A stretch of DNA of 64,000 nucleotides from a virus (Duplodnaviria; Heunggongvirae; Uroviricota; Caudoviricetes): the IMG/VR virus record IMGVR_UViG_2703718815_000003. One strand, 5' to 3'. Position numbers and translations under genes: made by a program. Of the stretch, positions 9,075 through 48,115 are shown piece after piece. Each line of letters opens with the position of its first letter. The stretch's first letter is position 1. Below the pieces are notes generated by a model. That model saw only the letters and a program-made list of their open reading frames with translations, had not been told where the DNA came from and searched no databases.

Positions 9075-9668
9075 CTAAGCAGCCTTCTTTGATGGTCTTT
9101 TTTTCCTGATCACATTCGCAGGATCATACCCTCCCAGACTTTTCATGACGTCCAAAGGGATCTTGCTTATAGAGTGCCCAGCGTCCTGACAGAATCCTCG
9201 AAAAACAACGAGCATACTGCCACCTGGGTTGATGTTTACTTCTACCTGACCCAGATTGACGTCAGGCTCGACAAACGCTACGCGGCCACCAGACAGAATA
9301 ATCGTCTCATTCGCACACTCTGTTGCACGCTCATACCACTTTGTATCTAGGGATTGAGGAATTAGCATCACTGTTGTAACTCCGCGAGCCTGCTCACGTA
9401 TAGCCGCATCAATCCAGGGGGAGATTTTGGAGTAGGGTGGATTGAGGAAGGCAATTGTACCTGGCTGTCCCCATTCAGATTTCAAAGCATCACGCTCAAC
9501 GCCTATGAAATTAGGCAGCTTTGCATTGTCCTTGTTGCAGGCAACGTCAACATCAAATGTCACTCCAAGATAACGTTGAATGGCAGAAAACAGCCAGTCA
9601 GGTGTTCTCCAGAGGTCACGAAGAGAGTTGTCGCGCTTTCGCTGTTTGATTTTTTCGGCTGCAATCAT
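9075..9668 (-). CDS. DNA N6-adenine methyltransferase, small phage type
   Basis: 197-aa ORF with NPPY catalytic tetrapeptide (AFLNPPYSK) in a small single-domain protein. Confidence 0.65.
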   Translation of the reverse strand: MIAAEKIKQRKRDNSLRDLWRTPDWLFSAIQRYLGVTFDVDVACNKDNAKLPNFIGVERDALKSEWGQPGTIAFLNPPYSKISPWIDAAIREQARGVTTVMLIPQSLDTKWYERATECANETIILSGGRVAFVEPDVNLGQVEVNINPGGSMLVVFRGFCQDAGHSISKIPLDVMKSLGGYDPANVIRKKRPSKKAA

Positions 9669-9733
9669 CTTCTTTCTCGATAGGTAAGTAAATACCTATT
9701 TTTGCATTTGATTTTATGTCTGGCAATCAAATA

Positions 9734-9778
9734 AAACGCGCCAGAAATGCAAACGAGAAGCTCTCTGGCGCGTTTTTG
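9734..9778. terminator. long hairpin with T-runs on both strands (candidate bidirectional terminator)
   Basis: aaacgcgccaga ... tctggcgcgttt 12-bp stem followed by TTTTT; second hairpin at about 9779..9812. Confidence 0.5.
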
Positions 9779-9851
9779 TGGTGCTGGGTATGTGATTGGC
9801 TTACCCAGCACTATAAAGCTCTCTATGGGCTTTATTTTCAGTAGGGGAACG

Positions 9852-10661
9852 TCATCCAATAGTGTACTCCGCGACAAACTTCTTAACGATCGGTGATTCT
9901 TCGTTCAATGTTAGATTTCCACCGTCTCTAACGGCAATTCCTGTCGCTGGAAATACAGCCATCATTTGCCCAGCCTGAGTTGACGCAGTGTTAAGCGGAT
10001 ACGGTTTTTCTGGATTGCTCATTAAAGCAATCTTAATACTATTACTTGTAGCCTTCTTTTCTGTGAGAAGGTGTCTCATGGAAATTACCGTGTAAACACT
10101 AATATCTGGACCTCCGCTAAACCAATTAAGAAGGTTTAATATCTTATCCTTTGCTTTGACAGGCGCGTTATCGTAAGCGTCTAAAAAAATATCTTTCTCT
10201 AAACCCGCTTTATTGAAAAACGCATCATCTTTATCACTTAGAGCAAAACGAGGACCTCTTGCAGTACGCGCTTTTTTATTTGTGTTGCTATCATTTGACT
10301 GTTGAACTTTTAATTCATCATTAATCTCAACACACCCTTCAACCTCGATGATCCCCAACTGTTCTGGTTCGTTTTCGGCAGCTTCACCACTTTCAGCGTT
10401 AATTACGTTTATAGGCTCATGCGCTAACTCCAACTCATTTAAAGCTGAGCTGAAATCACCTGCTTTTTCTTCATTGAACAGTTCTTCGGCAACATCATCA
10501 GAACTCATGGCTACGCCAGCATCTAGGCCGAGCAGCAGATCGTCAATATCATCAGTATTTTCAACCTGTGCAGCTTTTTTTACTGGTTCATCAAGTGATT
10601 GCAACATGGCTGCCAGCTCGTCCAGATCATCATTTGTCATTACATTTTCAACCGAACTCAT
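9852..10661 (-). CDS. acidic hypothetical protein
   Basis: 269-aa ORF, D/E-rich N-terminal half. Confidence 0.4.
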   Translation of the reverse strand: MSSVENVMTNDDLDELAAMLQSLDEPVKKAAQVENTDDIDDLLLGLDAGVAMSSDDVAEELFNEEKAGDFSSALNELELAHEPINVINAESGEAAENEPEQLGIIEVEGCVEINDELKVQQSNDSNTNKKARTARGPRFALSDKDDAFFNKAGLEKDIFLDAYDNAPVKAKDKILNLLNWFSGGPDISVYTVISMRHLLTEKKATSNSIKIALMSNPEKPYPLNTASTQAGQMMAVFPATGIAVRDGGNLTLNEESPIVKKFVAEYTIG

Positions 10662-29435: not shown

Positions 29436-31775
29436 TTAATCTTCTAGTTCTTCTGTTGGTGATGTCTTCTCTCGTCGGTCATCTATCGTCTGTAAAGCCG
29501 CAATGATTTCAGCTAGTGGCTTCTCCCGATACATCTCGACGATCTGTGATTTGGTGTATTTCTTGTCACCAATTTCAACTCGCCCGCTGGCGTTCTTTGG
29601 CAGGTATCCTTCTTCCAGCATGTACTCGACGAGCGACTCGATAACGTCGAGGCCACGAGTAGGATCGAAGTAGAATTTCCAGGTGCATTTGCCATACGGT
29701 GGTGCAACTTTGTTTTTGATGCACTCTGCGCCTACGTCCTGACCGATCTTCTCTTTCCCATCCTTCATCACCGATGCACCGAGACGGATGCGCACAGAAG
29801 CGTAAAACTTCGGTGAATCGCCGCCTGGCGACGTAGTAGGGTCGCCAAACATTACACCGATTTTTGTGCGAACCTGATTCAAGAAGATGATGCAGGCGTT
29901 GTATTTGCGTGCCCACAAAGCCAGAGTAGGGAAGTTCGCACTCGTCGCACGAGCCAGTGCCGTATTGTCGTTCATGTTCAGCTGATCTTTGTCTTTGGCA
30001 GTGCCTTCAGCCATCTTTTCGAACTTCTCGGCTTTGGAGTTCGGAACCATAGACGCAAGTGAGTCAGCCACGATACAGATAGGTGCTGATTCAGGAATAA
30101 GCTCTTCATCACGTACCAATTTAAGAATTGTGCCGATCAACTCTACAGAGTCTTCGAAGGTATCAGGCTGCTTGTATACCCACTGACCGTCATCCTCATC
30201 TGCGTTCAGACCATTGGCGACAGCCAGGCCAACGTCAAAACTGTTTTCATGATCGAGGAATACCGCCAGACCATCTTGTTTTTGAGCGGAGATCATCGCT
30301 GCTGTTGCAAGGAATGTGTTGTGGCTGATAATCCCGTTAGACCAGAAAGAGTGTGTTTCCGGCATCGCTACGTCGAACGTTGGTGCTTCACCTTCCTCAA
30401 TAGCCACGACTTCGTCGTAGAACAAGTTAGAGCCAATTACCGCTGCCAGTTGTGCAAACAGATGCTCGTTAAAACGATTCTTTCTGCCAATGAAGGAGAC
30501 ATAGATTTCTCGCAGTTTGTCTATTCCGACACGATCGCCGCGGCCAATAACGTGGTCTACCAGAGCGTAGTCTTCACGGGTGGTCTTGGTGAGCGACTCG
30601 TAGAGTGATTTCACTAAGCCGCTGATGTGCGGAACATAGCCTGAGTAAGTGCGGTCAAAACCAATGTCCCGTTTGGTTGCCACTGATAAACGTGCCGGAG
30701 ATTCGAAACCAATCGTTGACAGAAAAAGGTCGTAATTAGAGCCACTGAATGACAGCCGGTAATATGTATTTTCATAACCCGCGACGTGTTTTTCAGAGAT
30801 AGTTGACGTAATCCCCAGATTCAGGAGCATGAGGCGAATTTGCTGTAGCAGCAGCCCACTCGCGCTCACAACCTCAATGCAGCGACCATCATTGACGTGG
30901 CATTCCAGCTCAAAGTAGCCGCGAAGGAATGCAATTTGAGCCTCGCTATTGGCGCGACGCACACTCAACGGAACCTGCTTGCCAGCAGCTTTCTCATACT
31001 CCAGACCATATTCTTTAAAAAGCAGCGAACGCACCTCTTTGCTAAACAGCACATGGTCTTCCGAGCCGTTATGTTTTCTCGTAACTGGCATCTTGTCTGA
31101 TACCAGCGAAATGAGGCGGTAGTACTCATCCTTGATGAAAGGATCTGTGTTAGAAAAATTCACTGAATTTTCAGAGGCCACGTATCCGTCAGCAATTAAA
31201 TAGCCCATCAGTTTTGCGATATTGGCATCCAGGTGCTGATCGCCGAATTGATGTGTGCCAACCATTGAAGGAATCGTGTCGCCTACACTGATTTTTTCAG
31301 CATGTCGCCAGACGACATTACCTAAGTCGTCAACCACACGGATTGGGTGACGGAACGTAGCCTCGATATAACCGCCTGATGCCAGCTTAATACGCTTGAA
31401 TTTGCGACGGTTGTTCCATGTCAGGTGTGAGGTCTTCTCTATCACGCCATTTTCATTGATGAGTCCAACGTTATGCTCTACATCGCGAGTAGTGCATGTC
31501 GCTTTGTACCCTTCAATCTCAAACAACTCTTTCACTGTTACCATTCCACGCTCCGTCAGCAGCATGGTGTCTGCGGTAACACATTTCCCTGCACTTGGAG
31601 GACCGAATACTTCGACGATACGACCACATGGGAAGCCGCCATCGTAACGACCGGAAATAGCTTTGTTTAACGGTGGAAAGCCTGTATCAATCCAATGAGT
31701 TACTTTCTGAATTTCGTCGTTGCTACCGATTTTCTTTTTCAGAGCAAGTGCCAGTGCGGATTTTCCTTTTGCCAT
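29436..31775 (-). CDS. RecA-like recombinase interrupted by an intein
   Basis: extein: Walker A GPPSAGK|T split by insert, plus NQVRTKIGVMFGDPTTSPGGDSPKFYASVR RecA core; extein about 357 aa. Confidence 0.8.
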   Translation of the reverse strand: MAKGKSALALALKKKIGSNDEIQKVTHWIDTGFPPLNKAISGRYDGGFPCGRIVEVFGPPSAGKCVTADTMLLTERGMVTVKELFEIEGYKATCTTRDVEHNVGLINENGVIEKTSHLTWNNRRKFKRIKLASGGYIEATFRHPIRVVDDLGNVVWRHAEKISVGDTIPSMVGTHQFGDQHLDANIAKLMGYLIADGYVASENSVNFSNTDPFIKDEYYRLISLVSDKMPVTRKHNGSEDHVLFSKEVRSLLFKEYGLEYEKAAGKQVPLSVRRANSEAQIAFLRGYFELECHVNDGRCIEVVSASGLLLQQIRLMLLNLGITSTISEKHVAGYENTYYRLSFSGSNYDLFLSTIGFESPARLSVATKRDIGFDRTYSGYVPHISGLVKSLYESLTKTTREDYALVDHVIGRGDRVGIDKLREIYVSFIGRKNRFNEHLFAQLAAVIGSNLFYDEVVAIEEGEAPTFDVAMPETHSFWSNGIISHNTFLATAAMISAQKQDGLAVFLDHENSFDVGLAVANGLNADEDDGQWVYKQPDTFEDSVELIGTILKLVRDEELIPESAPICIVADSLASMVPNSKAEKFEKMAEGTAKDKDQLNMNDNTALARATSANFPTLALWARKYNACIIFLNQVRTKIGVMFGDPTTSPGGDSPKFYASVRIRLGASVMKDGKEKIGQDVGAECIKNKVAPPYGKCTWKFYFDPTRGLDVIESLVEYMLEEGYLPKNASGRVEIGDKKYTKSQIVEMYREKPLAEIIAALQTIDDRREKTSPTEELED
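30318..31583 (-). mobile_element. intein with LAGLIDADG homing-endonuclease domain inside the recombinase P-loop
   Basis: begins with Cys after GPPSAGK, block B TFRHP, LAGLIDADG-like LMGYLIADGY and LRGYFELE, ends ...IISHN followed by Thr (+1 nucleophile). Confidence 0.7.
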
Positions 31776-34751: not shown

Positions 34752-37700
34752 TCACGACTTAATAGTTTCTGCTACGTCGGCTAATATCGCTTCTAGTCGT
34801 TCTCCCTCTTCAGGTCTGAAGTAAAGAATGTTGGGGTTAAACCCGTAAAAGACTGTAACGTCAAGGTCTGGAAGATACTCCTTCCTACCGACTAAATCGG
34901 ATGGCTTGTTTTTGTTGTTAAACAATGCCGTTGCCCGACTGCCACACGTCAGCACATAGGTCGGACGTACCAGATTGATCTCTTCACGCATAAAGTCGGT
35001 GAACTGGCCGATCTCGTCTTTGGTGTAGTCCTTTTCTTTGTCTTTCACCTTTTTGCAAACGCCTGTGACATAGAGATCGCCCATGCGCAAATCTCCAGCC
35101 GTCAACAGCTTGGCCTTAAAATCGTCGTATCCGTTCTCCATGAAGTAACCGGTTCGAGCATCATTGCCGTTTGCATTGTCCAGAATGATCATGATTTTCG
35201 GCTTAATACCAATGCTGGGGCGGATTAGTTCATCACCTAAGCCCATTTCAGCCGCCATCCGTGTCATGAGTGCGTTAATTTCAGCCGATCGTTTGGGGTT
35301 CATCTCAAACGGACGTGAGGCTTTAACTGCGTCTATGACAAGGTTTCCCATCAATTCTGCCTGGTCGCGGAGACGCTCTGGATCAGTTGCTGGCAGACTG
35401 CCAGGCTCGATGGCTGCAAATGCCCCTACTTTTTGCAGCGATTCGCGAACTCGACTATTACAGGCACGTTTCTCGACAGCTTCTTCGAATTGCGCAAGTG
35501 ACTCGAATTTGCCGCCAACCTTTTCTCGCGCTCTCATGATGGCCTGGCAGCCATTCTCAGAACACCCCTTCACAGCAGAGAAGGGCGCATACAGCACCTG
35601 GCTGCCATCTTCAAGCGTGCGGATCTCGATTCGGTTTGATGACACGTTAACGTCTGGTGGCAATACGCGAATACCATAGGTCAGCGCATCTTTAACCAGC
35701 CCCTGGTGTTTATCTTCGCCAAGAATAGTGAGAGCAGCAGCGAAAAACTCTGCGGGGTAATGAGTTTTCAACCACATAGATTGATAACTGATTAAGGAGT
35801 AAGCAACAGAGTGTGATTTGTTGAACTGGTAGGCACCATTTTTTTCGAATGCGGTCCAGATCTCCTTCGCTTTCATCTCTGATAGCCCTGGATGTGACGC
35901 TGTAACACGTACTGCGTTTATAGGTAGTGTTGCTCCGTGCTCAAGTGCCTCTTCGACAGTTTTCAGAGTTCCGTCTTCGCATTTAAAATGTTCCGCACGG
36001 TGAATGCGCTGCGTAGTGCCATCTTCCAGTTCAACGTCTATCCAGCCAGCTTGAGCCTGAACGATGAACTTCTCGCCCATGCTCTTCATTTTTTCCATGT
36101 CCTTTTTGCCGATCGCTTTACGAACACCGTCAGCTTCAGCCATTGTGAAGCCAGCAAGCAATCGAGTCGCGTTCATCGTCTGTTCCTGATAGAGAATCAC
36201 GCCATTTGTTTCTGCGGTAAGTTCATCAAGAACGGGGTGTAATGATTCCGGCGTCATAAAGCCTTTGGCGACAGAAACATAATCATCCAACATGCCTGAC
36301 TGAATTGGTCCCGGCCGGAAGAGCGCAGTCGTAGCAACAACCGTTTTAAAGCTCATTGGCTCAATTCCACCACCTAAATCTTTAAGCAGCTTGCGCATTG
36401 GGCCTGATTCAAGCTGGAAAACACCTTGAGTGTACCCAGCAGCAAAACCATCCAGCACCTTGCGATCTTCAAGAGAAATGGCATCAAGATTGATATCTTC
36501 ACCTGTGTTCTCTTTTATGTAGCGTTTTGCACTATCGAGCAAATCGAGAGTTGCCAGACCGAGTACGTCCAGCTTAATTAGGCCCATAGCCTCGCAGTAA
36601 CGCTTGTCAAATGCGATACAACGCGCGTCACCACGGCGTTCAACCGGTGTACGTTCTGTCAGAGGAACACCTGCTACGATCATCCCTGCCGCATGTCTAC
36701 CAAAGCCACGCATAAGGCTTTGTAACTTGCAGGCTGCATTGAATGCATCAGGATATTTTGTTGCGTATTTGTCGAGACTTGCCAGTTGTTCGCGCAGTTC
36801 TTCCAATGGAAGGCTATCATCCTCGACGTTCTTCAGTTCTTTTGATACCGCCATATCTGCGGACTCCACACCATAAATACGAGCGGTGTCACGTAGTGCA
36901 GAGGCTGCGCCCAGATATGTGAAGTTCGGAATACCCGCAACGTAATCTTCGCCGTAGCGTTCATTCAGATACTCGATCACTTCATGGCGACGTGCCTGGC
37001 TGAAGTCCAAATCCGCATCCGGCAAGTCGAGACGCTCAGGGTTGATGAAACGTTCAAACAGAAGACCGTGACGGATTGGGTCGACGTTGGTTATGCCTAT
37101 GCACCATGCCACCAAAGAGCCAGCAGAGGAACCACGACCAGGCCCAACGGGAATGCCAGTTTCACGACTATGATTCATCAGATCGCGCACCATCAGGAAG
37201 TAACCACAGAATCCCAGGCGAGTCAGCGTGTCCATTTCGTACTTTAGCCGCTCAACATAAACCCTGTTCTCAGAAGCCGGTGGTGTGTAGCCAAACTCTT
37301 TTGTGGTAAGACGTTTACGCAGCCCAGCAACGGCCAGTTTCATCAGAGTTGCAGGCTCGTCGTCTGCCATCTTTGGCAGTGCTGGTGGCAATTCATGCCA
37401 GCGCCATGTGCAGGCATCGATAATGGTATCCTGCGTTGTTGAGGCCATTGCAGCTGTTACCGGCACATCCATGCGAACGGAGAAGGCTTTAAGCGCCTCA
37501 AGGAGATGGCGGCGACCATTGACGGCGTTATCTCGCTGGTGGGGGATACGCAGACGATGCGGCTGGTCGATTTTGATGTTGTTCGTAACCATGTGCGCAA
37601 TGTCTTTAATGTCTGCATCGTCGATCGATTCGTAATAAGCGGGATAGAACGCCACTGGCTCTATTTTCAATGCGCTGGCGACTTTCATCGCCCGGACGTT

Positions 37701-38270
37701 AATCTGGTCGTAGAATGGGGTAGGATGCGGATAAACCACACTATAGAAGTTGTCTTTTCCACCCGCTGTAATCAGTGTGCTTATAATTTTTGCAAAATCG
37801 TTGCGTTGGAACACGCTACCGATGTCGGAAGTAAGCAGGATGATGTTGCCTTTGGCATATGTAGAAACCAACTGTTCGAGCGAGAGACGCGGTACAAAGT
37901 AGAACTGTTCTCGTGTGTTGGCCGCCGTCATTAGTTCGCAGATGTCGCGATATCCTTGCTCATTTTTAATTAGAGCGGTAAACGAGTAGTTACGTCCCCG
38001 CTCTAATGATTCCATACATCTCATAGATTCTTTAGCAAGTTTAGCCCGGTGCTCGTATGTGGGATCATCAACAATGTTTAGTTTCACACCACAAATAACC
38101 GCCATGTCGTCACCAGCGGCACGTTGTAGTGGAATAACACTTGCAATATTCATGCTATCTGCTGAAATTACAGCGGTGTAGCCAGCTTCTCTGGCAATCT
38201 TCACCGCGTTTTCTGCTTTTAGAGCCGACTCCCCAAGTGAGAAGTCAGTTCGAACCATCAGTGCCTTCAT
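34752..38270 (-). CDS. dnaE: DNA polymerase III alpha-type (DnaE-like) replicative polymerase
   Basis: 1172 aa; N-terminal PHP-like domain; GPGRGSSAGSLVAWCIGITNVDPIRHGLLFERFINPER core motif. Confidence 0.85.
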   Translation of the reverse strand: MKALMVRTDFSLGESALKAENAVKIAREAGYTAVISADSMNIASVIPLQRAAGDDMAVICGVKLNIVDDPTYEHRAKLAKESMRCMESLERGRNYSFTALIKNEQGYRDICELMTAANTREQFYFVPRLSLEQLVSTYAKGNIILLTSDIGSVFQRNDFAKIISTLITAGGKDNFYSVVYPHPTPFYDQINVRAMKVASALKIEPVAFYPAYYESIDDADIKDIAHMVTNNIKIDQPHRLRIPHQRDNAVNGRRHLLEALKAFSVRMDVPVTAAMASTTQDTIIDACTWRWHELPPALPKMADDEPATLMKLAVAGLRKRLTTKEFGYTPPASENRVYVERLKYEMDTLTRLGFCGYFLMVRDLMNHSRETGIPVGPGRGSSAGSLVAWCIGITNVDPIRHGLLFERFINPERLDLPDADLDFSQARRHEVIEYLNERYGEDYVAGIPNFTYLGAASALRDTARIYGVESADMAVSKELKNVEDDSLPLEELREQLASLDKYATKYPDAFNAACKLQSLMRGFGRHAAGMIVAGVPLTERTPVERRGDARCIAFDKRYCEAMGLIKLDVLGLATLDLLDSAKRYIKENTGEDINLDAISLEDRKVLDGFAAGYTQGVFQLESGPMRKLLKDLGGGIEPMSFKTVVATTALFRPGPIQSGMLDDYVSVAKGFMTPESLHPVLDELTAETNGVILYQEQTMNATRLLAGFTMAEADGVRKAIGKKDMEKMKSMGEKFIVQAQAGWIDVELEDGTTQRIHRAEHFKCEDGTLKTVEEALEHGATLPINAVRVTASHPGLSEMKAKEIWTAFEKNGAYQFNKSHSVAYSLISYQSMWLKTHYPAEFFAAALTILGEDKHQGLVKDALTYGIRVLPPDVNVSSNRIEIRTLEDGSQVLYAPFSAVKGCSENGCQAIMRAREKVGGKFESLAQFEEAVEKRACNSRVRESLQKVGAFAAIEPGSLPATDPERLRDQAELMGNLVIDAVKASRPFEMNPKRSAEINALMTRMAAEMGLGDELIRPSIGIKPKIMIILDNANGNDARTGYFMENGYDDFKAKLLTAGDLRMGDLYVTGVCKKVKDKEKDYTKDEIGQFTDFMREEINLVRPTYVLTCGSRATALFNNKNKPSDLVGRKEYLPDLDVTVFYGFNPNILYFRPEEGERLEAILADVAETIKS

Positions 38271-41988: not shown

Positions 41989-42201
41989 TTAACAGATTCT
42001 GACGGCTAAAGACCCGGAGCCGGTATTGAGAAGCGTGAAGCGTTTGTTGTTAAGTTCGAATATAAATCCAGTTGTGTCATTCACACCAACCTGAATCTGC
42101 TCATTCGGTAGATCGGTGAGGATGTCAGCTACACACTCATCAGCTAATTTCTGTACGTGTCCGATCTCAAGAGCGATTAGGCTGGAAATAGTGGTGTTCA
42201 T
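41989..42201 (-). CDS. hypothetical protein
   Basis: 70-aa ORF. Confidence 0.3.
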   Translation of the reverse strand: MNTTISSLIALEIGHVQKLADECVADILTDLPNEQIQVGVNDTTGFIFELNNKRFTLLNTGSGSLAVRIC

Positions 42202-42377
42202 TCAATCAATCCATTCTAACTTATACTATGGTAAGGAATACTACTAAAATTTGTATCAATACTGAATACATTCATATCATATGCAAGTTGATTTTCTTAC
42301 CTGTTTTGGGCTAATTTTTCTCCGTGCAATGGCCTTTAAACGGTCTTTTAAGTGCCTATCGAAAAAATGATAATAGC

Positions 42378-42405
42378 TTTACAACCCTAACCTTTGATGT
42401 AATAT
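42378..42405 (+). promoter_or_regulatory. candidate sigma70 promoter for the XRE regulator gene
   Basis: TTTACA - 16 nt - TAATAT, followed by palindrome GGTAAGCACTTACC before the start codon. Confidence 0.4.
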
Positions 42406-42451
42406 CGGTAAGCACTTACCAGAGAGAATTGAACGCGCAAAGGTTGTAACC

Positions 42452-42838
42452 ATGTCTGATAACAAGATTGAATTTATAGAAAGTCGCTACGCTGCTTTTA
42501 TCGCAGGGTTGATTGAATCCTCACCTATGAGCCAGGCCCAGATAGCCAAAACAATTGGGTATAAAAACGCCAACAACCTTTCTTTAATTAAAAGCGGCAA
42601 AATTCCTTTGCCTATCGATAAGGTTCGTCCGCTGGCGCTGGCACTGGGCATTGAGCCAAGTCGTCTTATGATGATGGTGCTGGAAGAACGCCAACCCGAA
42701 CTCGCAGCATTTTTATACAAAGAAGGCACTGCTCCTCTTAACGAGGACGAAAAACAGGTTCTTGCTGCATATAACGAGCGATTCGGTAAAGAGAAAGGCG
42801 CATCACAAAAGGTTGTTGAGGCCATAAAGTCTCTATGA
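42452..42838 (+). CDS. XRE-family helix-turn-helix transcriptional regulator
   Basis: HTH SQAQIAKTIGYKNANNLSLIKSGK; plus-strand gene convergent with recombinase. Confidence 0.65.
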   Translation: MSDNKIEFIESRYAAFIAGLIESSPMSQAQIAKTIGYKNANNLSLIKSGKIPLPIDKVRPLALALGIEPSRLMMMVLEERQPELAAFLYKEGTAPLNEDEKQVLAAYNERFGKEKGASQKVVEAIKSL

Positions 42839-43936
42839 AAAATTTACACGAATAAGCTCTGTTGATAGACGATCTCCCTTAAATTTGTGGTCAATTTCGT
42901 CTAAATCCGGTTGCTCTACGATTGATGCGATGTACGTCGAGAAACTTTCTAAGGCGTCTCGCATCTCGTCCATATAATCGTGACGGTCGTAGACCCGATC
43001 TATCCCCTCAAGACTGTGGTTCATGATTTTACGTGATACCTCCTGGCTTATGCCTAATGCTGGGAAGTAACTACGCGCAGTACGGCGCAAATCTCGGGGT
43101 GTAAATGGCTCAAGCTCCATCAGTTCTGGTCGTTCCAGAATACGACGTAATGCCTGGGCTATTGCCACTTTAGACATAGGAAGGTCTTTCCCGATTTTTT
43201 TATTCGAAGGCACGAGCCACTGGCTGTCTTTACCATATTCGAACAACTCTTCAATACAAGTGCGCATTAATGAGCTTAAAGGCAGAGAATGCTCACGGGC
43301 AGATTTGTTCCTCTTGCCTTGATTCCAAACCCCACGCTTAAGATTGAACTCACTTTTTTTAGCCCGCAGTACTTCGTCAGGTCGTCTTGCTGATACAAGA
43401 CACAGTCTGGCCGCCCATTTTGTACCAGCGCACACATTGAAGTAGTCCCATATATTCCAGAACACCCATACCTCTGCGTCAGTCAGCTTCCGCTCGCGGG
43501 GCGTGGGCTTTGCGCCACCGGCAACTTTGTTAAGTGACATATCGTTTAACGGTGACACGTCTATCATCCCCTGGAAGGCGCACCAGCTAAGGAACTGCTT
43601 CATCAGAGAGAAAACGCGGCGGCCCATAACAATTTTGCCATCCAGTATTAGTGGGTTGACCAGTTGGTTCACCATGAACCTATTAATATCACTTACTTTT
43701 ACATCGGCAATGTGCGGCAAAACATGTATCAAAATACAATGAACAGCGATCTCTGGCCGACGTCTGGTTATCAGCAGAGATAAGCGAGTGAATAACATGA
43801 ATGCGTCCGAGAATCTCATGTCATTGCTAACCTGGGAGATCATAACGGCCTGCATTTGAGATGCTCTTTCGAGATACTCAATCGCCTCTTTTGAGGTGTT
43901 CTCCGCAGCGCGTGCTCTGTCAAAGCTATTTTTCAT
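42833..43936 (-). CDS. tyrosine recombinase / integrase
   Basis: C-terminal catalytic region with ...RRPDEV..., TPRDLRRTARSY and HSLEGIDRVYDRHDY (R-K-H-R-H-Y-type arrangement). Confidence 0.75.
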   Translation of the reverse strand: MKNSFDRARAAENTSKEAIEYLERASQMQAVMISQVSNDMRFSDAFMLFTRLSLLITRRRPEIAVHCILIHVLPHIADVKVSDINRFMVNQLVNPLILDGKIVMGRRVFSLMKQFLSWCAFQGMIDVSPLNDMSLNKVAGGAKPTPRERKLTDAEVWVFWNIWDYFNVCAGTKWAARLCLVSARRPDEVLRAKKSEFNLKRGVWNQGKRNKSAREHSLPLSSLMRTCIEELFEYGKDSQWLVPSNKKIGKDLPMSKVAIAQALRRILERPELMELEPFTPRDLRRTARSYFPALGISQEVSRKIMNHSLEGIDRVYDRHDYMDEMRDALESFSTYIASIVEQPDLDEIDHKFKGDRLSTELIRVNFS

Positions 43937-44032
43937 ATGACAATCACCGAGTTACGCCGATGTACTGTATAAGTAAACAGTATATTAGGCATAGATTCTT
44001 ATAGGATCAAGAGTAAAAGTAACTCATTTTTA

Positions 44033-44071
44033 CTAATGATTCCATACATAGTAGGTATGGAATCATTTAGA
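44033..44071. promoter_or_regulatory. palindromic operator-like site upstream of recombinase gene
   Basis: AATGATTCCATAC-ATAGTAG-GTATGGAATCATT perfect 13-bp inverted repeat. Confidence 0.5.
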
Positions 44072-44148
44072 CGTCGTTTTTTAAATTTTAAGGTAAACAG
44101 GAGTGAGTTTGGTGGGGAATAAAAAACGGCTCCTGTGAGCCGTTAAAA

Positions 44149-44397
44149 TCAGAGGGTGCTGACGTATGCAGCCAGTTCTGTGTATCCGCCAATCGGCTGG
44201 CCATCGATCAGCACCTGGGGGATAGTCTCTACCGGTTTATCAACAATTTCACTTAGTTTTTCCTTGTCGATACCGGCAGTGGTGATGTCGATGTACTCAT
44301 AATCACCGTAGCCATGTCCCTTTAGTTGCTTCGCCAGCTCAACCGCACGTTTGCAGTATGAGCAGTTATCTCGTCCGTAGATAACGACTTTCATCAC
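44149..44397 (-). CDS. glutaredoxin
   Basis: 82 aa; CSYC active site, TIPQVLIDGQPIGGYTEL glutathione-site motif. Confidence 0.8.
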   Translation of the reverse strand: MMKVVIYGRDNCSYCKRAVELAKQLKGHGYGDYEYIDITTAGIDKEKLSEIVDKPVETIPQVLIDGQPIGGYTELAAYVSTL

Positions 44398-44668
44398 TTC
44401 ACCTCGTGCAACTGCTGTTCATTAACGATGATTGTGTCAATTTCGTAGCCGTGGATGCGTGGCTTTGGCTTCACTGCCTGACGAGCTGCGCGACGCGCCT
44501 GTTTACGTTTGTTTCCCATATAGAGTCCTTTCAAGTGAGTAAGTGTCGTGACTATAGCTAAAATGAATAGGTGAGTCATTACCTATTTAATGTGTTTGGT
44601 TACTAAGCAGAAATGGCTTTGTGAGGTTGACACATTAGAAACGGCAAGACAGCTTTAAACTAGCTGAA

Positions 44669-45790
44669 ATGGTATGGTCGATTAGGTATCATTCAGTTTC
44701 AAAATTAACCAAAGACACTGATAAAATGCCTGTTTTGTTAATCCTCATACTTGGGACAGTGATGATTATTTTCTGGGATACCGTCAAGGAAAACGTAGAG
44801 GTCATAGGTACACTTGCCACTTCACTTGCATTTTTCGCCACAGCATGGGCCGCTTACGAGGCAAGGCATAGTGCAAAGGCAGCAATGAGGGCCACTAGGC
44901 TGACGGCAGCTTCACTCCTTGAAATGAAAAAAGCCTCTTTTAAGGAATGGTACGGCATATTACTTGAACAGCATAATAGATTACTTGAGGATGTTAACAA
45001 GACCTTGCAGGATGATAGGGAACTTAATGCAAAACTGGGAACGAATCTCATCAAGGCTATTTATTACCATGTAACCAAAAACTCCGTTTACATTAAATAT
45101 ATTAACCACATAGTTTTAATTCTTGATTATTTAGATAAAGACTTCTATTCGCCGTCATCAGCCGATTATGAAAAGAGAGCTTACATAGAACAGCTGCGCA
45201 ACAGCATTAGTCCTAATGTAAGCCTGCTGATAGCTACATTCGGCCTTAATATTGACACTAATAAAACCTATGACGCAAAGAGGCTTTACAGCCTGCTAAG
45301 CAAGTATAACTTCTTCGAAGGCCAACTTTTTTTTGAAGAAGCAATATCGAAAGTTCATTATTTGGACTCTTATGCTGCTGTGATATTTGATAACGAATAC
45401 CGAAAAGATGTAGAGTTTTATGTTGAAGAAATGGTTCGAGGTCGTGAGACCCCTAAAATCGATTCAAGATATCGTCATTTAAGGGCTACGTTCGCAATTC
45501 TGTGGTCTTACAACAACCCCTGCCGACAACATTTGCTTCAAAGATTTAATGACCTACCTATGCATATGCGAAACAGCATTGAGCTGAGGATGGAAAATGC
45601 AGCCGATAAAGTAGCTGAGTTCAACTCTTTGTTACTTGGTTTTATAGGCTGGGAGCTTAGAATCGCAGGTAATAAAGTGAGGGTGATCAAGGATGAAAAA
45701 CATTTAAAGAGGCTAATAAAACTCAACGATAAGTATCCTATTCCCCCCCCGAGAGAAAGGTATTCTGTTAACCAATGGTTTCACCAATAG
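44669..45790 (+). CDS. membrane-anchored hypothetical protein (plus-strand moron; 3' end may be frameshifted at a C8 tract)
   Basis: 373-aa ORF, N-terminal hydrophobic helices; C8 run at 45743..45750; +1 frame stays open to 45957. Confidence 0.45.
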   Translation: MVWSIRYHSVSKLTKDTDKMPVLLILILGTVMIIFWDTVKENVEVIGTLATSLAFFATAWAAYEARHSAKAAMRATRLTAASLLEMKKASFKEWYGILLEQHNRLLEDVNKTLQDDRELNAKLGTNLIKAIYYHVTKNSVYIKYINHIVLILDYLDKDFYSPSSADYEKRAYIEQLRNSISPNVSLLIATFGLNIDTNKTYDAKRLYSLLSKYNFFEGQLFFEEAISKVHYLDSYAAVIFDNEYRKDVEFYVEEMVRGRETPKIDSRYRHLRATFAILWSYNNPCRQHLLQRFNDLPMHMRNSIELRMENAADKVAEFNSLLLGFIGWELRIAGNKVRVIKDEKHLKRLIKLNDKYPIPPPRERYSVNQWFHQ

Positions 45791-45961
45791 ATTCGCTGAT
45801 GAGATTAAAAATAGTCTGTCTATGTATAAGTTAGAAAATGCCTATTTAGCACTCAACTCTAATCAACACAAAGAAAAGGTGATTGATGAAATTGTTGTTG
45901 AAGTTGAGAAAATTGTCGATAAATTTAAAGCAGAACTTGATTCTTTGGATTTCAACTAAGC

Positions 45962-45990
45962 AAAAAGGGGCCGAAGCCCCTTTAATTATT
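45962..45990. terminator. bidirectional intrinsic terminator
   Basis: aggggc-cgaa-gcccct hairpin with TTAATTATTT on plus strand and TTTTT on minus strand. Confidence 0.65.
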
Positions 45991-46069
45991 TGCGCTGAAA
46001 AAAGTGTTGCTAGGATGTTAGCAAGCTATGGTTAAGAACGTCTGCCGCAATTGTCTATCACAGCGTTGA

Positions 46070-46135
46070 GCGGTCTGGTTTATGTTAGCGGAGTCTTAAT
46101 CTGGGTGATTAAAAGGCCAAACCGCTCAACGCTGT
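46070..46135. repeat. perfect 16-bp inverted repeat (long stem-loop) downstream of tRNA cluster
   Basis: cacagcgttgagcggt ... accgctcaacgctgtg with a ~34-nt loop. Confidence 0.6.
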
Positions 46136-46138
46136 GTC

Positions 46139-46225
46139 TGGCGGAGAGTAATGGAATCGAACCATCATCGCTTGCGCAATGGGACGGTTTTCAAGACCGC
46201 TTGAGCACCATGCTCCCTACTCTCC
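46139..46225 (-). tRNA. tRNA-Ser (anticodon UGA), CCA encoded
   Basis: manual fold: acceptor GGAGAGT/ACTCTCC, anticodon loop CTTGAAA, long variable arm, T-loop TTCGATT. Confidence 0.75.
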
Positions 46226-46438
46226 AGTTGTTGTGGTGCCGGGGGCTTCCCGGTGTCCTTTGGCTGGTTATCCACCGTGGACGGAGCCAATAGTCATCAC
46301 AAAGGATCAATATAACCATTTCCCCGCGTGCGCTTAGCCGCATTCACCACAACGAAAAGAGCACTGTATGACGTTTGCACGGACTTACGCTTAAAACAGG
46401 GCAGTCTCGGCGGTTCTCAATGCTCTTTCCTGTTGTGT

Positions 46439-46514
46439 TGGTGCCGGTTAACGGATTCGAACCGCCGACCATTCGCTTACAAGGCGACTGCTCTACCAAC
46501 TGAGCTAAACCGGC
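46439..46514 (-). tRNA. tRNA-Thr (anticodon UGU), CCA encoded
   Basis: manual fold: acceptor GCCGGTT/AACCGGC, D-arm GCTCAGTTGGTAGAGC, anticodon loop CTTGTAA, T-loop TTCGAAT. Confidence 0.75.
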
Positions 46515-46518
46515 AATT

Positions 46519-46605
46519 TGGTGGGGAGTGATGGAGTCGAACCACCCGAGTCGCAATGACAGTAGATTTACAGTCTACACCGCTACCTCTACGGACTAAC
46601 TCCCC
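46519..46605 (-). tRNA. tRNA-Tyr (anticodon GUA), CCA encoded
   Basis: manual fold: acceptor GGGGAGT/ACTCCCC, anticodon stem GTAGA/TCTAC with loop CTGTAAA, long variable arm. Confidence 0.75.
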
Positions 46606-46610
46606 TAAAT

Positions 46611-46685
46611 TGGCGATGGTGGGTGGATTCGAACCACCGACCAGTTGGTTAACAGCCAACTGCTCTACCGCTGAGCTACACCATC
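46611..46685 (-). tRNA. tRNA-Asn (anticodon GUU), CCA encoded
   Basis: manual fold: acceptor GATGGTG/CACCATC, anticodon stem GTTGG/CCAAC with loop CTGTTAA, T-loop TTCGAAT. Confidence 0.75.
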
Positions 46686-47463
46686 AATTCGGCACTGCCA
46701 GTATTTATTACTCAACAGTGCCAATCGCGACGGTTTAGTTTCTGCCAGGAAACGCACCGCTACTTGCACTTTTCGTTAGTGCCAGACGCTTTCGACTTCG
46801 CTCAATAGTAGAAGGCAAAATCTTTAAGTAGATGATGTTTCTGAGGACAGCACCTACTTTGTAATTTATACAATGTGATGTATGGAATCATTTGTTGTGA
46901 AAACAGGCACCAATGGCAACAGTGGTTAAACCTACACAACAATCCTGTCTTCACAACGTTGAGGCCACTACTCCGATTGAATGTTTGCCCAACATGTTAC
47001 ATATCAACGCTCGCCGGTATCTCTGTGAATAGAACCTTAGAATTGATAAAAATGTAATGGCCTCAACGTTGTGTGCTGGCTAACCATACCAGCCGGGCTA
47101 CGTCGCCGCTTTTTAACCCAGTATAAACGACATAATTGAACAAAATGACGTAACAGGATGGGCGGTCAGAGGCTAAGAATCCGGGAGTCATATGGAGTTG
47201 AAAATATACCGACCGCCCATTCTGTTACTTCATCGGAGGGAACACTCATGTTCCCTCCTGCGTTCTGCAATCACACTCGCTCAGTGTGTCCCATTTCGGT
47301 AACGAGGCTGGAAACTGACCTCGCTGGTGTTTGGCTTATTAGGCTACTGCCAGATAGACTTCTTCGTTTGCACTTGTATTTAAGTTCAAACAGTCGCGTC
47401 TCAACGAAAACAAAGTCATCTTATACATAAAAGATAAGTAAGTAAATACTTATTATTGTGTTT

Positions 47464-47754
47464 TTATTCGGTTGTGACTTTTTTGATCAAGGCCACTCTA
47501 CGACTAGGTGTTCTTGTGATGGTGGCAGTGAATCGTTTCGCTTGGATAGTAATGGTTTCGTTCTCCTTAAGTTGCCCGTAGCGAGTTTCCACCAGGGTGC
47601 CAAGACGCCACAGACCATCATCGATACGTTTATGACTAGCAAATTTAATCAGCAACAGTTTTACGACTAACTGACCTACGTAAAAGGCGAATGCGACTCC
47701 GGCCGCTAAGCAATAGGTGGCCAACCACCAGTCCCAAGAAGTTAAATTGCTCAT
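47464..47754 (-). CDS. small membrane protein
   Basis: 96-aa ORF with N-terminal hydrophobic helix. Confidence 0.35.
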   Translation of the reverse strand: MSNLTSWDWWLATYCLAAGVAFAFYVGQLVVKLLLIKFASHKRIDDGLWRLGTLVETRYGQLKENETITIQAKRFTATITRTPSRRVALIKKVTTE

Positions 47755-47899
47755 TTTCTAACCTTTGTTTCATGAACTACCCGATACACACGCTTTCCGA
47801 TGCACAGTGTTTTGGTTTTAAGTTCCTGCTTAATTAAATCACGACAGATGCCGAAGCCGATAAGGAAGCCACCCATAAAAGCTAATGAGATGTATGGAA

Positions 47900-48115
47900 T
47901 CATTTTAACGCTCCTGATTCTACTAATTGCTGTAGCAATAATTTCCCTTTATCAGTTAACTGGTAGTTGGCCGAGCACCACGTTTCAGAAACGTTTGCAA
48001 CCAACCCTAAACGCTCTAACTTAGCTCGCGTTTTAGGCTTCCAGTACTCAGGGAACTCCGGCCACTTACTGATTTCATGAAGCGTTTCTTTCTCCCTTTT
48101 ACTTAATACGATCAT
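47900..48115 (-). CDS. hypothetical protein
   Basis: 71-aa ORF overlapping ligase gene end by 4 nt. Confidence 0.3.
   Translation of the reverse strand: MIVLSKREKETLHEISKWPEFPEYWKPKTRAKLERLGLVANVSETWCSANYQLTDKGKLLLQQLVESGALK

Follow-up and report, generated by a model that had tools for sequence, protein, structure and literature searches.

The 64,000-nucleotide stretch of DNA analyzed here (the window) is an SSU5-like phage-plasmid in which a 33-bp palindrome at 44035-44067 lies upstream of a gene for a tyrosine recombinase, Int. It is reasonably probable that the adjacent recombinase recognizes this palindrome as its cognate core (crossover) site, for multimer resolution under SOS control and with single half-sites elsewhere in the window as accessory elements. 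Comparative sequence analysis establishes the association of site with recombinase, the co-variation of arms with recombinase, the residence of the module on plasmids alone and purifying selection on the half-sites; from the same material we infer binding, catalysis, multimer resolution, control by LexA and a role for the half-sites.

The 13-bp motif GTATGGAATCATT has five exact matches in the window as against 0.00 expected from 100 dinucleotide-preserving shuffles. Two of these, on the minus strand at 44035-44047 (arm AATGATTCCATAC) and on the plus strand at 44055-44067 (arm GTATGGAATCATT), form a perfect 13-7-13 inverted repeat around the asymmetric spacer ATAGTAG (44048-44054), with a fold energy as single-stranded DNA of -11.1 kcal/mol (z = -6.1). 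The first-pass annotation had described such a pair about 100 bp upstream of the recombinase, and the measurement bears it out: the near edge of the palindrome is 99 bp upstream of the ATG of int (42833..43936, minus strand). The remaining exact copies are single, at 38005-38017 (minus strand, inside the DNA polymerase III alpha ORF), 46880-46892 and 47892-47904 (both plus strand), and share a longer core, GATGTATGGAATCAT, with three exact matches in the window and 0 expected. The latter two had been listed, at about 46882 and 47890, in an annotation that missed the 38005 copy; they were also said to flank the tRNA region, which is not the case because the tRNA cluster (46139-46685) has both of them to one side and is bracketed instead by the palindrome and the 46880 copy. 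Cyrano, a close relative with a complete genome of 108 kb, carries the same five copies and no others, all within 9.2 kb, indicating that the motif is local and not genome-wide.

Through about 135 related loci in total the palindrome travels with the recombinase gene, being found upstream of it in 69 of 71 IMG/VR viral loci and 63 of 65 genome loci, at 77-346 bp from int. Arms of the form GTATGGAATCA accompany recombinases at 56% identity or above, and arms of the form GTCTGGAGTCA accompany a recombinase clade at 45-53% identity whose hosts are Pantoea, Rahnella, Erwinia, Ewingella, Xenorhabdus, Photorhabdus, Morganella, and Hafnia. The arms are invariant inside each clade, and the spacer varies in sequence and is always 7 bp long in both clades; invariant arms with a free spacer, as in the 13-7-13 layout, characterize core sites of the loxP, FRT, and dif type. 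Spacer orientation is reversed between close relatives (locus L057 vs L065; Rahnella vs Erwinia), so the direction of the spacer relative to the flanks is not selected, as would be expected if all that counts is how two copies in a multimer are oriented to each other. Of the genes around the site at the 55 loci that are not in SSU5-like elements, only that of the recombinase is conserved (54 loci; next family at most 21), and in one example, an Erwinia plasmid, recombinase and palindrome sit amid ordinary plasmid genes. Among 5,426 complete E. coli genomes the module was present in 252, in 255 places that were all plasmid-borne with no chromosomal copy, and 848 plasmids of PLSDB have a match, 813 of them non-mobilizable. 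Phage SSU5 itself lacks both recombinase and palindrome, and the module is therefore dispensable for lytic growth. Judged by sequence, SSU5 is an exceptional deletion derivative; its junction is found in none of 585 plasmids, and its filler sequence is also present in int-bearing contigs.

Int (367 aa) has core-binding and catalytic domains and no recognizable arm-binding domain. It matches PF00589 at 40.6 bits (cut-off 27.1) and, weakly, PF22022; the NCBIfam P4-type integrase profile aligns only from profile position 137 of 413, and the residues before 71 have no Pfam or NCBIfam match. The AlphaFold model (mean pLDDT 81.9) has an all-helical N-terminus, and a fold search with it returns Tn1549 Int, lambda Int (75-356), and Xer as top matches, with IntI weaker than lambda Int and Tn1549 Int, and Cre (E about 0.1) far below the three top matches. 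The model resembles the lambda Int lineage, for which an overlap of 7 bp is typical. R185, K211, R284, and Y316 are invariant in a comparison of 18 homologues, as is the arginine, R281, that occupies the position of the first catalytic histidine (HxxR); this substitution counts against the core-site reading, with the predicted activity of Int still plausible. Int is by its sequence a descendant of P4-type integrases, whose usual job is chromosomal integration, and this ancestry counts against a resolution role. The first-pass annotation had proposed arm-type recombinase sites. Sequence comparison supports recombinase binding sites, because the palindrome accompanies int, its arms co-vary with the clade and it is present without the neighboring XRE-family gene. 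The arm-type form is not supported: such sites by definition differ in sequence from the core and are bound by a separate N-terminal domain, and here the single copies are identical to the core-palindrome arms and Int shows no arm-binding domain.

A putative int promoter can be read at 43982..44010 (minus strand), with a -35 TTGATC at 44010-44005, a 17-nt spacer and a -10 TAATAT at 43987-43982; it scores 8/12 to consensus, under the threshold of the promoter scan, and its TTGATC block is kept in most relatives. A LexA (SOS) box, TACTGTATAAGTAAACAGTA, at 43963..43982 spans the start region and reaches into the putative -10, the final base of which it covers, and is the sole match in 64 kb at three or fewer mismatches to the 20-bp consensus (0 expected). 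The box is kept in E. coli, Klebsiella, and Salmonella-type relatives, and represents a candidate site at which LexA would bind. A LexA-repressed promoter is atypical for a housekeeping resolution system and counts against the resolution reading. On the other side, 9 bp beyond the distal arm of the palindrome, lies an A/T-rich tract (44076..44089; minus strand AAAATTTAAAAAAC). Unrelated cargo is concentrated at the distal flank, a hot spot that shows 18 flank types, and a pure resolution site leaves this unexplained. Most of these 18 mutually unrelated flanks carry a (c)AGAATTyAAAAA-like sequence at the same spacing from the arm; the tract is position-specific and retained even in otherwise unrelated flanks, a similar pattern stands beside the arm in the GTCTGGAGTCA clade, and it may act as a bend or accessory-factor site.

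On the favored reading, a lox/dif-like core site, each 13-bp arm would be bound by one recombinase protomer with A-N-GTATGGAATCA as the recognition core, two full sites would synapse as a tetramer, and strand exchange would follow cleavage at the two edges of the 7-bp overlap. Given the perfect symmetry of the arms, the direction of the site would be set by the asymmetric spacer alone. In this way monomer circles could be formed from multimers of the plasmid prophage (roughly 108 kb) or from infecting DNA that is terminally redundant. LexA would keep int low, and int would rise in the SOS response along with RecA-driven multimerization and prophage induction. The orphan copies would be high-affinity sites for single recombinase protomers, accessory or regulatory, and not crossover sites. 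The earlier pointer toward dimer-resolution sites was, we think, in the right direction.

The orphan half-sites occupy four positions. Half-site A (GATGTATGGAATCATT; 47889..47904, plus strand) covers the ATGA stop/start junction of ORFs 47900..48115 and 47751..47903 and is antisense to both, which lie on the minus strand; half-site B, of the same sequence (46877..46892, plus strand), is non-coding, 195 bp upstream of tRNA-Asn (46611-46685, minus strand) and always about 1.0 kb from A. Half-site D, again of this sequence (38005..38020, minus strand), is in sense at about codon 84 of the DNA polymerase III alpha ORF (34752..38270, minus strand). Half-site C (GGGGTTTGGAATCA; 43320..43333, minus strand), inside int at codons G-V-W-N-Q, is a decayed sixth copy of the motif, GTTTGGAATCA at 43320-43330, that is intact (GATGTATGGAATCA) in Kluyvera, Y. 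pestis pMT1 and loci L072, L146, and L151, and near-intact (AATGTATGGAATCA) in Klebsiella pJN2-26. Only 1 of 15 core columns varies at A (vs 36/48 flank columns; 24 distinct contexts), at B (vs 28/48 and 16/48; 16 and 6 distinct contexts) and at D (vs 36/48; 27 distinct contexts), and 5 of 15 at C (16 contexts). At D, in a poorly conserved protein linker, the codons read R-C-M-E-S-L, and TGT ATG GAA TCA never vary although nearby residues do. These comparisons demonstrate strong purifying selection on the half-sites, even inside coding sequence, where three of the four lie. All four positions have the orientation of the nearer arm, i.e., face the palindrome, in every lineage examined; a GAT extension missing from the palindrome arms is conserved at them, and half-sites are confined to lineages in which the palindrome arms match them in sequence. 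The single copies are thus candidates for, and probably represent, extra recombinase-binding sites. Counting against an Int-site reading, the palindrome arms lack that GAT extension and SSU5 retains half-sites without the recombinase. SSU5-like elements of the GTCTGGAGTCA clade have none in the 10 kb to either side of the core, and half-sites are therefore not needed for basic function. We know of no accessory-site mechanism that suits them, because they are kilobases from the core.

The palindrome and single copies might instead be sites of a recombinase-fold transcription regulator, with int autoregulation and the neighboring replication and tRNA genes as targets and recombination absent or secondary, a reading that we consider unlikely. 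The fold search with Int also matches MrpR (8a0a) and SroF (9rgl), and the system shares with MrpR (YopR) and SroF, SPbeta-like phage master repressors, the tyrosine-recombinase fold, an SOS link and dispersed 15-bp recognition motifs in a phage genome, the MrpR motif being found at 9 sites (PMC10516654; bioRxiv 10.1101/2025.11.27.690993). The orphan core has that same length and the half-sites are strongly conserved; many GTCTGGAGTCA-clade loci also have a TAnAAT hexamer 14-19 bp from the int-proximal arm, a possible promoter overlap. However, most catalytic residues are gone from MrpR, whose sites are in promoter regions (PMC10516654), whereas Int keeps an invariant nucleophile tyrosine, lysine and pair of arginines, the palindrome is a full crossover-type site, and the orphan sites are mostly intragenic and away from promoters. 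The broad range of palindrome-to-int distances, with the site ending here 25 bp upstream of the -35, is poor operator geometry, and int is apparently not highly expressed in lysogeny, Cyrano int being outside the genes that are (PMC9928086).

Somewhat less credible still is an integron-like or attP-like capture platform, in which Int, induced in the SOS response, would recombine the palindrome with secondary sites carried by other DNA molecules, so that cargo is inserted beside the site or the element integrates into other replicons. As in the integron platform (intI, attI, cassette array), an SOS box stands at the recombinase promoter, the primary site is directly upstream, and a highly variable, partly highly expressed cargo region adjoins it. 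The 18 unrelated flank types begin within about 25 bp of the arm, the variable segment spans from the site to tRNA-Asn, CYRAN_43 beside the site is expressed 723-fold over background (PMC9928086), and the P4-type ancestry of the recombinase would fit. Unlike in integrons, the cargo is neither bounded by attC-like sites nor cassette-organized, and Int does not belong to the IntI type. None of the cargo segments is bounded by a second full or hybrid site, relatives show no enrichment of degenerate copies, the tRNA 3' end is not directly repeated at the other boundary, the element is never chromosomal in E. coli, and a 240-kb cointegrate arose via IS100 and not at the site. The A/T-rich tract is moreover retained on the cargo side, which places the breakpoints outside the site itself.

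It is quite improbable that the orphan copies act at the RNA level, in the manner of the P4 CI and P1 C4 immunity RNAs with their short complementary repeats. With A and B antisense and C and D sense to unidirectional transcription, RNAs from A or B would be perfectly complementary to those from C or D over 15-20 nt, A and D sharing 20 nt in the window. B is in a long conserved non-coding leader beside the tRNA genes with its 5' half unpaired in the predicted fold, the orphan copies have the GAT extension in common, and most of the rare core variants would preserve G-U pairing; the GGT variant at B (L016, L017), however, breaks it. Pairing at pol codon 84 and int codon 203 would be atypical, no promoter or terminator delimiting a small RNA and no Rfam family were found, SSU5-like elements of the other arm type lack an analogous repeat pair, and the identity of the copies with recombinase-site arms is left unexplained.

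The first-pass alternative, that all copies are operators of the XRE-family repressor (ORF 42452..42838), is very hard to sustain. The gene adjoins int, convergent with it, and co-occurs with int in SSU5-like elements; Cyrano lysogens express its homologue, which is listed as the putative repressor (PMC9928086). However, the XRE promoter region (42202-42451) has no copy of GTATGGAATCATT, and 55 plasmid loci outside SSU5-like elements keep recombinase and palindrome without an XRE homologue. A 33-bp 13-7-13 layout is of the tyrosine-recombinase core-site type and far above the usual size of a helix-turn-helix operator. A different perfect palindrome, GGTAAGCACTTACC, just past the predicted -10 of the XRE gene, conserved in relatives and recurring 28-80 bp upstream of several genes (8 matches vs 1.4 expected), supplies GGTAAG-N2-CTTACC as the candidate operator of the XRE protein. 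Least probable of all, Int-bound orphan copies would be polar barriers, a replication-fork or translocase trap around the resolution site; their inward-facing geometry is that of Ter/dif and KOPS/dif arrangements, but only four independent positions are involved (chance of the pattern about 1 in 8), the motif appears unlike the Tus Ter core GTTGTAAC, repA lies only about 20 kb away from the site in a circle of 108 kb, lysogens probably contain little Int, and we know of no tyrosine recombinase that serves as a fork barrier.

The preferred reading, a lox/dif-like core site, can be set against several known systems. In TnpI/IRS of Tn4430, as here, the core motifs are perfectly symmetric, orientation comes from a short spacer only and additional copies of the recombinase motif exist, there as accessory sites for extra recombinase subunits; DR1 and DR2, however, are both to one side of the core and inside a 116-bp site (PMC2847244), whereas the copies described here are 0.7-6 kb off on both sides, three of them inside genes, and a topological-filter role cannot be assumed at such distances. 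Lambda/P4-type integrases with attP are related to Int in the core-binding and catalytic domains, by sequence and by fold, and share the 7-bp overlap, but here there is no arm-binding N-terminal domain and no chromosomal integration in E. coli genomes, the additional sites are core arms and not a second class, and the arms are perfect over 13 bp. XerCD/dif-cer-psi and ResD/rfsF are alike in proposed role and in having two inverted arms around a 6-8 bp central region; here, in contrast, one element-encoded recombinase would act on symmetric arms, and no cer- or psi-type accessory-protein region was recognized beside the palindrome.

Cre/loxP of P1 (also Dre/rox, Vika/vox, and Panto/pox) differs in its 8-bp spacer, as opposed to 7 bp, and here a LexA box stands at the promoter, orphan half-sites lie kilobases away, Int has no detectable sequence relationship with Cre, and function is predicted from sequence. 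It is alike in the pairing of a recombinase with a single adjacent site of about 33 bp, in the make-up of that site, two perfect 13-bp inverted repeats separated by a short asymmetric spacer, in its location on a low-copy plasmid prophage, and in the proposed multimer resolution and cyclization at a site never seen integrated. By analogy, the biological job is most likely that of Cre/loxP in phage P1, or of Xer/cer or ResD/rfsF in plasmids, which would yield monomer circles and hence faithful segregation of a low-copy replicon.

The 13-mer GTATGGAATCATT occurs as five exact copies in the 64-kb window, at 38005 (-), 44035 (-), 44055 (+), 46880 (+), and 47892 (+), where none is expected from 100 shuffles. 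Two of them, 44035-44047 and 44055-44067, make up a perfect palindrome with ATAGTAG as its 7-bp spacer, and the near edge of this palindrome lies 99 bp from the start codon of Int, a predicted tyrosine recombinase (ORF 42833..43936, - strand), as the first-pass annotation had described. Simple lox/FRT/dif-type cores consist of inverted 11-13 bp arms around an asymmetric 6-8 bp spacer, a layout that the 13-7-13 arrangement in the window reproduces. The single copies previously placed near the tRNA region were likewise recovered at 46880 and 47892 (both +), but the earlier list was incomplete, as a further exact copy at 38005 sits inside the DNA polymerase III alpha ORF. A longer core, GATGTATGGAATCAT, is common to these three single copies (three exact matches, none expected), and a decayed copy, GTTTGGAATCA, is found at 43320 within the recombinase gene. 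The window belongs to an SSU5-like phage-plasmid, and the nearest annotated record is Escherichia phage Cyrano, pLF82; the 108-kb Cyrano genome, which is complete, contains these five 13-mer copies and no others, all inside 9.2 kb. Read with coordinates descending, the local gene order is ligase and small ORFs, ~600 nt of conserved non-coding DNA, four tRNAs, variable cargo (glutaredoxin and others), palindrome, Int, a convergent XRE-type gene, CobT-like and AAA+ genes, and the DNA polymerase. The single copies and the decayed one, here termed orphan half-sites A to D, fall with the small ORFs (A, 47889..47904), between the non-coding DNA and the tRNAs (B, 46877..46892), in int (C, 43320..43333), and in the polymerase gene (D, 38005..38020).

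Comparison loci spanned 10 kb to each side of the recombinase gene, and two genomes were examined whole. In an IMG/VR set of 71 loci, whose recombinases are 84-100% identical except for single ones at 56% and 27%, the palindrome lies ~100 bp upstream of the gene in all but two; its arms are invariant and its spacers differ (CTACTAT, CTATTAA, TTGTAAG, TCCTTAG, TCTTTAG, TTAATAG, TTATATA). A profile search restricted to one genome per species yielded 65 further loci; in 63 of these, two inverted arms of 11-17 bp around a 7-bp spacer are located 77-346 bp upstream of the gene. Arms of class GTATGGAATCA accompany recombinases at least 56% identical to the query, and arms of class GTCTGGAGTCA, with two changes per arm, accompany a recombinase clade at 45-53% identity from Pantoea, Rahnella, Erwinia, Ewingella, Xenorhabdus, Photorhabdus, Morganella, and Hafnia, such that arm class follows recombinase clade; arms are intermediate or imperfect in a few loci. 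Among 55 non-SSU5-like loci, the recombinase is the sole gene conserved around the site (54 loci; any other family in at most 21) and an XRE homologue is absent, while on a completely sequenced Erwinia plasmid the module sits amid ordinary plasmid genes. The association, the co-variation of arms with clades, and the sole conserved neighbor together define a module of two parts, one DNA and one protein, that vary in concert. This co-variation is the strongest non-experimental evidence obtainable for the predicted binding of the palindrome by the recombinase.

Hybrid or imperfect arms, such as TGACTCCATAC...GTCTGGAGTCA and TGACGCCAGAC...GTATGGAGTCA, were observed in four chromosomal or megaplasmid loci (L103, L130, L133, and L138, at about 9,650-9,910). 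These copies could be specificity-class intermediates or decaying sites.

The spacer is fixed at 7 bp in length and free to vary in sequence. Across the sets of 71 and 65 loci, most spacers read CTNNNAA when put in one orientation; A is constant two positions from each arm, conservation is partial at the outer bases, and the middle three vary freely. Relative to the gene, the spacer was found either way round, even in close relatives with homologous flanks, as between loci L057 and L065 or between Rahnella and Erwinia. Since the spacer flips between close relatives, there is no selection on which way the site faces within its surroundings, as would be expected if the site need only match its own second copy in a multimer, unlike an attP with asymmetric arms. 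The two-arm core layout is that of loxP, FRT, and dif sites, and we propose that the module is functionally Cre/loxP-like, carried here on a phage-plasmid.

The distribution of the module was examined in 5,426 complete E. coli genomes, 252 of which carry it in 255 places, all on plasmids and none on a chromosome; a chromosomal attP is thereby ruled out for this species (0/255). In PLSDB, 848 plasmids have a match (813 of them non-mobilizable), with hosts in Klebsiella, Escherichia, Enterobacter, Yersinia (pMT1), and Salmonella. Each of ~135 loci has a single intact palindrome, without split half-sites of the attL/attR kind, and the whole Cyrano genome likewise has one. A 240-kb plasmid examined as a natural cointegrate at the palindrome proved instead to be fused through IS100.

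Phage SSU5, the type phage of the group, lacks the recombinase (best tblastn E-value 0.84), the palindrome, and the XRE gene. Comparison of its locus (L078, 42600-42662) with the window (41989-46611) indicates the absence of a ~4.6 kb segment comprising extra tRNAs, cargo, palindrome, int, XRE repressor, and a 70-aa ORF. The SSU5 junction was found in none of the 585 PLSDB plasmids that share its tRNA-Asn region, and no Int-less relative beyond SSU5 was present among the 585. A 62-bp filler at the junction corresponds to ordinary sequence beside tRNA-Asn in int-bearing relatives; together with the unique junction, this makes SSU5 an apparent deletion derivative. SSU5 thus looks like a repressor-less deletion mutant, and loss of the repressor would account for its recovery as a plaque-forming phage. 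Since SSU5 lacks the module, lytic growth does not require it. Elsewhere in the window, a RecA/UvsX-like ORF (29436-31775, -) encodes 779 aa compared with 358 aa in SSU5, and a homologue is annotated in RefSeq as a LAGLIDADG homing endonuclease; it is probably a recombinase gene with an intein.

Int matches PF00589 over residues 172-320 (40.6 bits; cut-off 27.1), placing it in the tyrosine recombinase superfamily, and a fold search matches it to Tn1549 Int, lambda Int, Xer, and IntI, each with a probability of 1.00. R185, K211, R284, and Y316, assigned to canonical positions by motif inspection, are invariant among 18 homologues; by the same motif-based mapping, arginine (R281) is invariant at the first histidine position of HxxR, and H or Q occurs at H307. 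The protein consists of core-binding and catalytic domains related to those of P4/lambda-type integrases. A search for an arm-binding domain yielded nothing from Pfam or NCBIfam ahead of residue 71, a P4-type integrase profile aligns only from position 137 of 413, and residues 1-60 of the model are helical, the arm-binding fold of lambda-type integrases being a beta-sheet. As judged from these alignments, Int is by descent a P4/lambda-type integrase with a predicted loss of the arm-binding domain. The first-pass annotation had offered arm-type recombinase binding as one explanation of the repeats. Arm-type sites are unlike core sites in sequence and cluster within ~250 bp of the core, whereas the orphan copies have the very sequence of the core arms and are found at variable distances of 0.7-6 kb from the core (1.2-5.7 kb for site B). 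Given copies with the core-arm sequence and an Int lacking an arm-binding domain, the arm-type reading is rejected.

The other explanation offered, that the 13-mers are operators of the XRE regulator, fares no better, as there is no 13-mer copy in the XRE promoter region (42202-42451) and the palindrome occurs in the 55 loci that have no XRE gene. A different perfect palindrome, GGTAAGCACTTACC (GGTAAG-N2-CTTACC), is located at 42407-42420, directly past the predicted -10 of the XRE gene, and is conserved in relatives with XRE proteins 65-100% identical. Resembling copies in the window number eight against 1.4 expected, are mostly intergenic, and include those at 2498, 7467, 9683, 19234, 44570, and 59794 besides 42407-42420. 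In Cyrano, copies with 1-2 mismatches lie 28-80 bp upstream of tail-fiber, holin, nrdA, methyltransferase, and ead genes. GGTAAGCACTTACC is therefore more likely than the 13-mer to be the operator of the putative XRE repressor, and is a candidate dispersed lysogeny operator, reminiscent of the C1 operators of P1.

Along the int strand, the glutaredoxin-operon terminator (44144-44119) is followed by an A/T-rich tract and the palindrome; a putative int promoter (TTGATC, 17 nt, TAATAT) begins 24 bp past the palindrome and precedes a LexA (SOS) box, a ribosome-binding site, and the ATG. The LexA box, TACTGTATAAGTAAACAGTA (43963-43982), is a strong one, has no other match in the window, and is kept in relatives. 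It reads TACTGTTTACTTATACAGTA on the int strand, where its first base is the last base of the -10, and the predicted CTGT-N8-ACAG box overlaps the putative -10 at its end, along with the predicted start region. We infer from this arrangement that int expression is SOS-inducible. In Cyrano, int is not among the genes highly expressed in lysogeny, and the gene beside the palindrome is expressed 723-fold over background (PMC9928086).

On the opposite side of the palindrome, the DNA extending to tRNA-Asn (44068-46610 in the window, with equivalents in L004-L073) is a hot spot for unrelated cargo with 18 flank types, and an A/T-rich motif, cAGAATTyAAAAA, is found at a fixed distance from the arm on this cargo side. 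A tRNA-Asn island with att repeats was considered; the tRNA-side boundary is sharp, but the opposite boundary carries no tRNA 3'-end repeat. One cargo ORF (44669..45790, +; 373 aa) has a C8 run at 45741-45752 near its 3' end and matches only the first 335 of 408 PHROG-profile positions; it may be frameshifted or phase-variable.

Several features surround the tRNA genes. Hairpin elements at 46059-46136 (78 bp) and 46952-47073 (122 bp) have identical inverted termini, CACA[AG]CGTTGAG, of which there are four exact copies (five matches at up to one mismatch; 0.7 expected). The two hairpins bracket the tRNA cluster and half-site B, and the SSU5 62-bp junction filler holds one such arm; candidate roles are RNA processing signals and small mobile or recombination elements. 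The ~600 nt of non-coding DNA at 46893-47463 is highly conserved among SSU5-like elements of E. coli, Klebsiella, and Salmonella and holds long hairpins, one of them with a 23-bp stem at 47145-47233. Folding of 46686-47080 (-), from the hairpin at 46952-47073 down to tRNA-Asn, gives z = -6.1, and 46893-47463 has no Rfam match; this stretch may encode a structured RNA or act in replication as a DNA element. Between tRNA-Ser and tRNA-Thr, 46203-46371 (-) has a sub-threshold match to Rfam STnc100, a Salmonella sRNA (41.3 bits against a gathering score of 47; E = 1.5e-6).

The orphan half-sites lie in dissimilar settings: A where two small ORFs meet, B in the DNA 195 bp upstream of tRNA-Asn, C within int, and D at codon 84 of the DNA polymerase. 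Only 1 of 15 core columns is variable at sites D and A (27 and 24 distinct contexts), compared with 36 of 48 flank columns at each; for site B the corresponding values are 1/15 and, in sets of 16 and 6 contexts, 28/48 and 16/48, and for site C (16 contexts) 5/15 and 31/48. Site D falls in a poorly conserved polymerase linker, where TGT ATG GAA TCA is constant while adjoining residues change, indicating selection on DNA or RNA. A GAT extension is present on the orphan sites and missing from the palindrome arms. All four share the orientation of the nearer arm and so face the palindrome, a pattern with a chance of ~1 in 8 for four independent positions. They are confined to SSU5-like backbones with a same-arm palindrome, including lineages with 56-62% identical recombinases. 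Within 10 kb on either side of the gene, they are absent from the Xenorhabdus and Morganella SSU5-like elements, whose palindrome arms are of the other class and which show no consistent analogous repeats, and from Chimaeribacter plasmids and all other non-SSU5 plasmids. The simplest reading is that the orphan half-sites bind single recombinase protomers, for which the third FRT element is a precedent; their kilobase spacing matches no known accessory mechanism.

An extension of this reading, which we regard as unlikely, is that Int is bifunctional, recombining the palindrome while SOS-induced protomers on the four orphan sites act as polar roadblocks or regulators of the replication region. 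Such a protein would be an active recombinase midway to a recombinase-fold repressor of the MrpR/SroF type, or part of a miniature Ter/dif-like trap around a resolution site; to our knowledge, the Tus Ter core, GTTGTAAC, is not matched by the half-site sequence. A role at the RNA level is unlikely: transcribed copies of A and B are complementary to those of C and D and could pair, yet pairing leaves the identity of the orphan sites with the recombinase arms unexplained, and tRNAs apart no known RNA family was found at or near the sites. Insertion relics of a former full site would fit the geometry, but C and D lie within intact ORFs, and inspection of alignments revealed no cryptic second arm 7 bp from any half-site. 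Mosaic boundaries are suggestive at site A and at the palindrome, and not at site D. Shufflon-like deletion or inversion between half-sites is rejected, as the adjacent 7 bp do not stay the same from site to site across lineages, and ~140 loci showed no inversion or deletion ending at a half-site. A start-codon context (ATG ATT CCA TAC) holds for site A only, the other copies being without a ribosome-binding site.

For the proposed resolution module, knowledge of the family suggests that each of the two arms would be bound by Int protomers, that two sites within a multimer would synapse, and that strand exchange over the 7-bp overlap would yield monomers. The promoter motif suggests that Int would be held low by LexA until SOS, and conservation of the orphan sites suggests that they may bind further protomers with an accessory or regulatory effect. 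SSU5-like phage-plasmids are common and can carry resistance and virulence genes; the recombinase/site pair, once defined, would represent a stability determinant targetable for curing, and the LexA box would tie plasmid-prophage maintenance or induction to the SOS response. The arm classes, differing at two bases per arm, may supply the genome-engineering toolbox with one or two naturally orthogonal 33-bp targets, as well as a natural system in which to map specificity determinants. The orphan half-sites point to DNA-level selection inside an essential replication gene, and may reveal a second, non-recombination role of an apparently catalytically intact tyrosine recombinase.

The tyrosine recombinase of the SSU5 group has been noted in the literature merely as a persistent gene family (PMC7969092). 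Searches with either arm sequence returned unrelated primers only, and no paper was found that defines the site. MrpR retains only 3 of 7 catalytic residues (PMC10516654); repressors of the MrpR/SroF type have lost catalytic residues, whereas Int keeps the arginines, lysine, and tyrosine invariant and so falls outside that class. The core layout of the palindrome is shared with the IRS core of Tn4430, the site of TnpI, and DR1/DR2 of the IRS provide a precedent for extra copies of a recombinase-bound motif (PMC2847244). The accessory motifs of TnpI/IRS, however, lie within ~100 bp of the core, whereas the orphan sites carry the same motif as the arms but are kilobases away. We rate the core module as an uncharacterized member of a familiar class; its SOS box, flipping spacer, adjacent cargo hot spot, and conserved intragenic orphan half-sites have no counterpart in the known simple systems.
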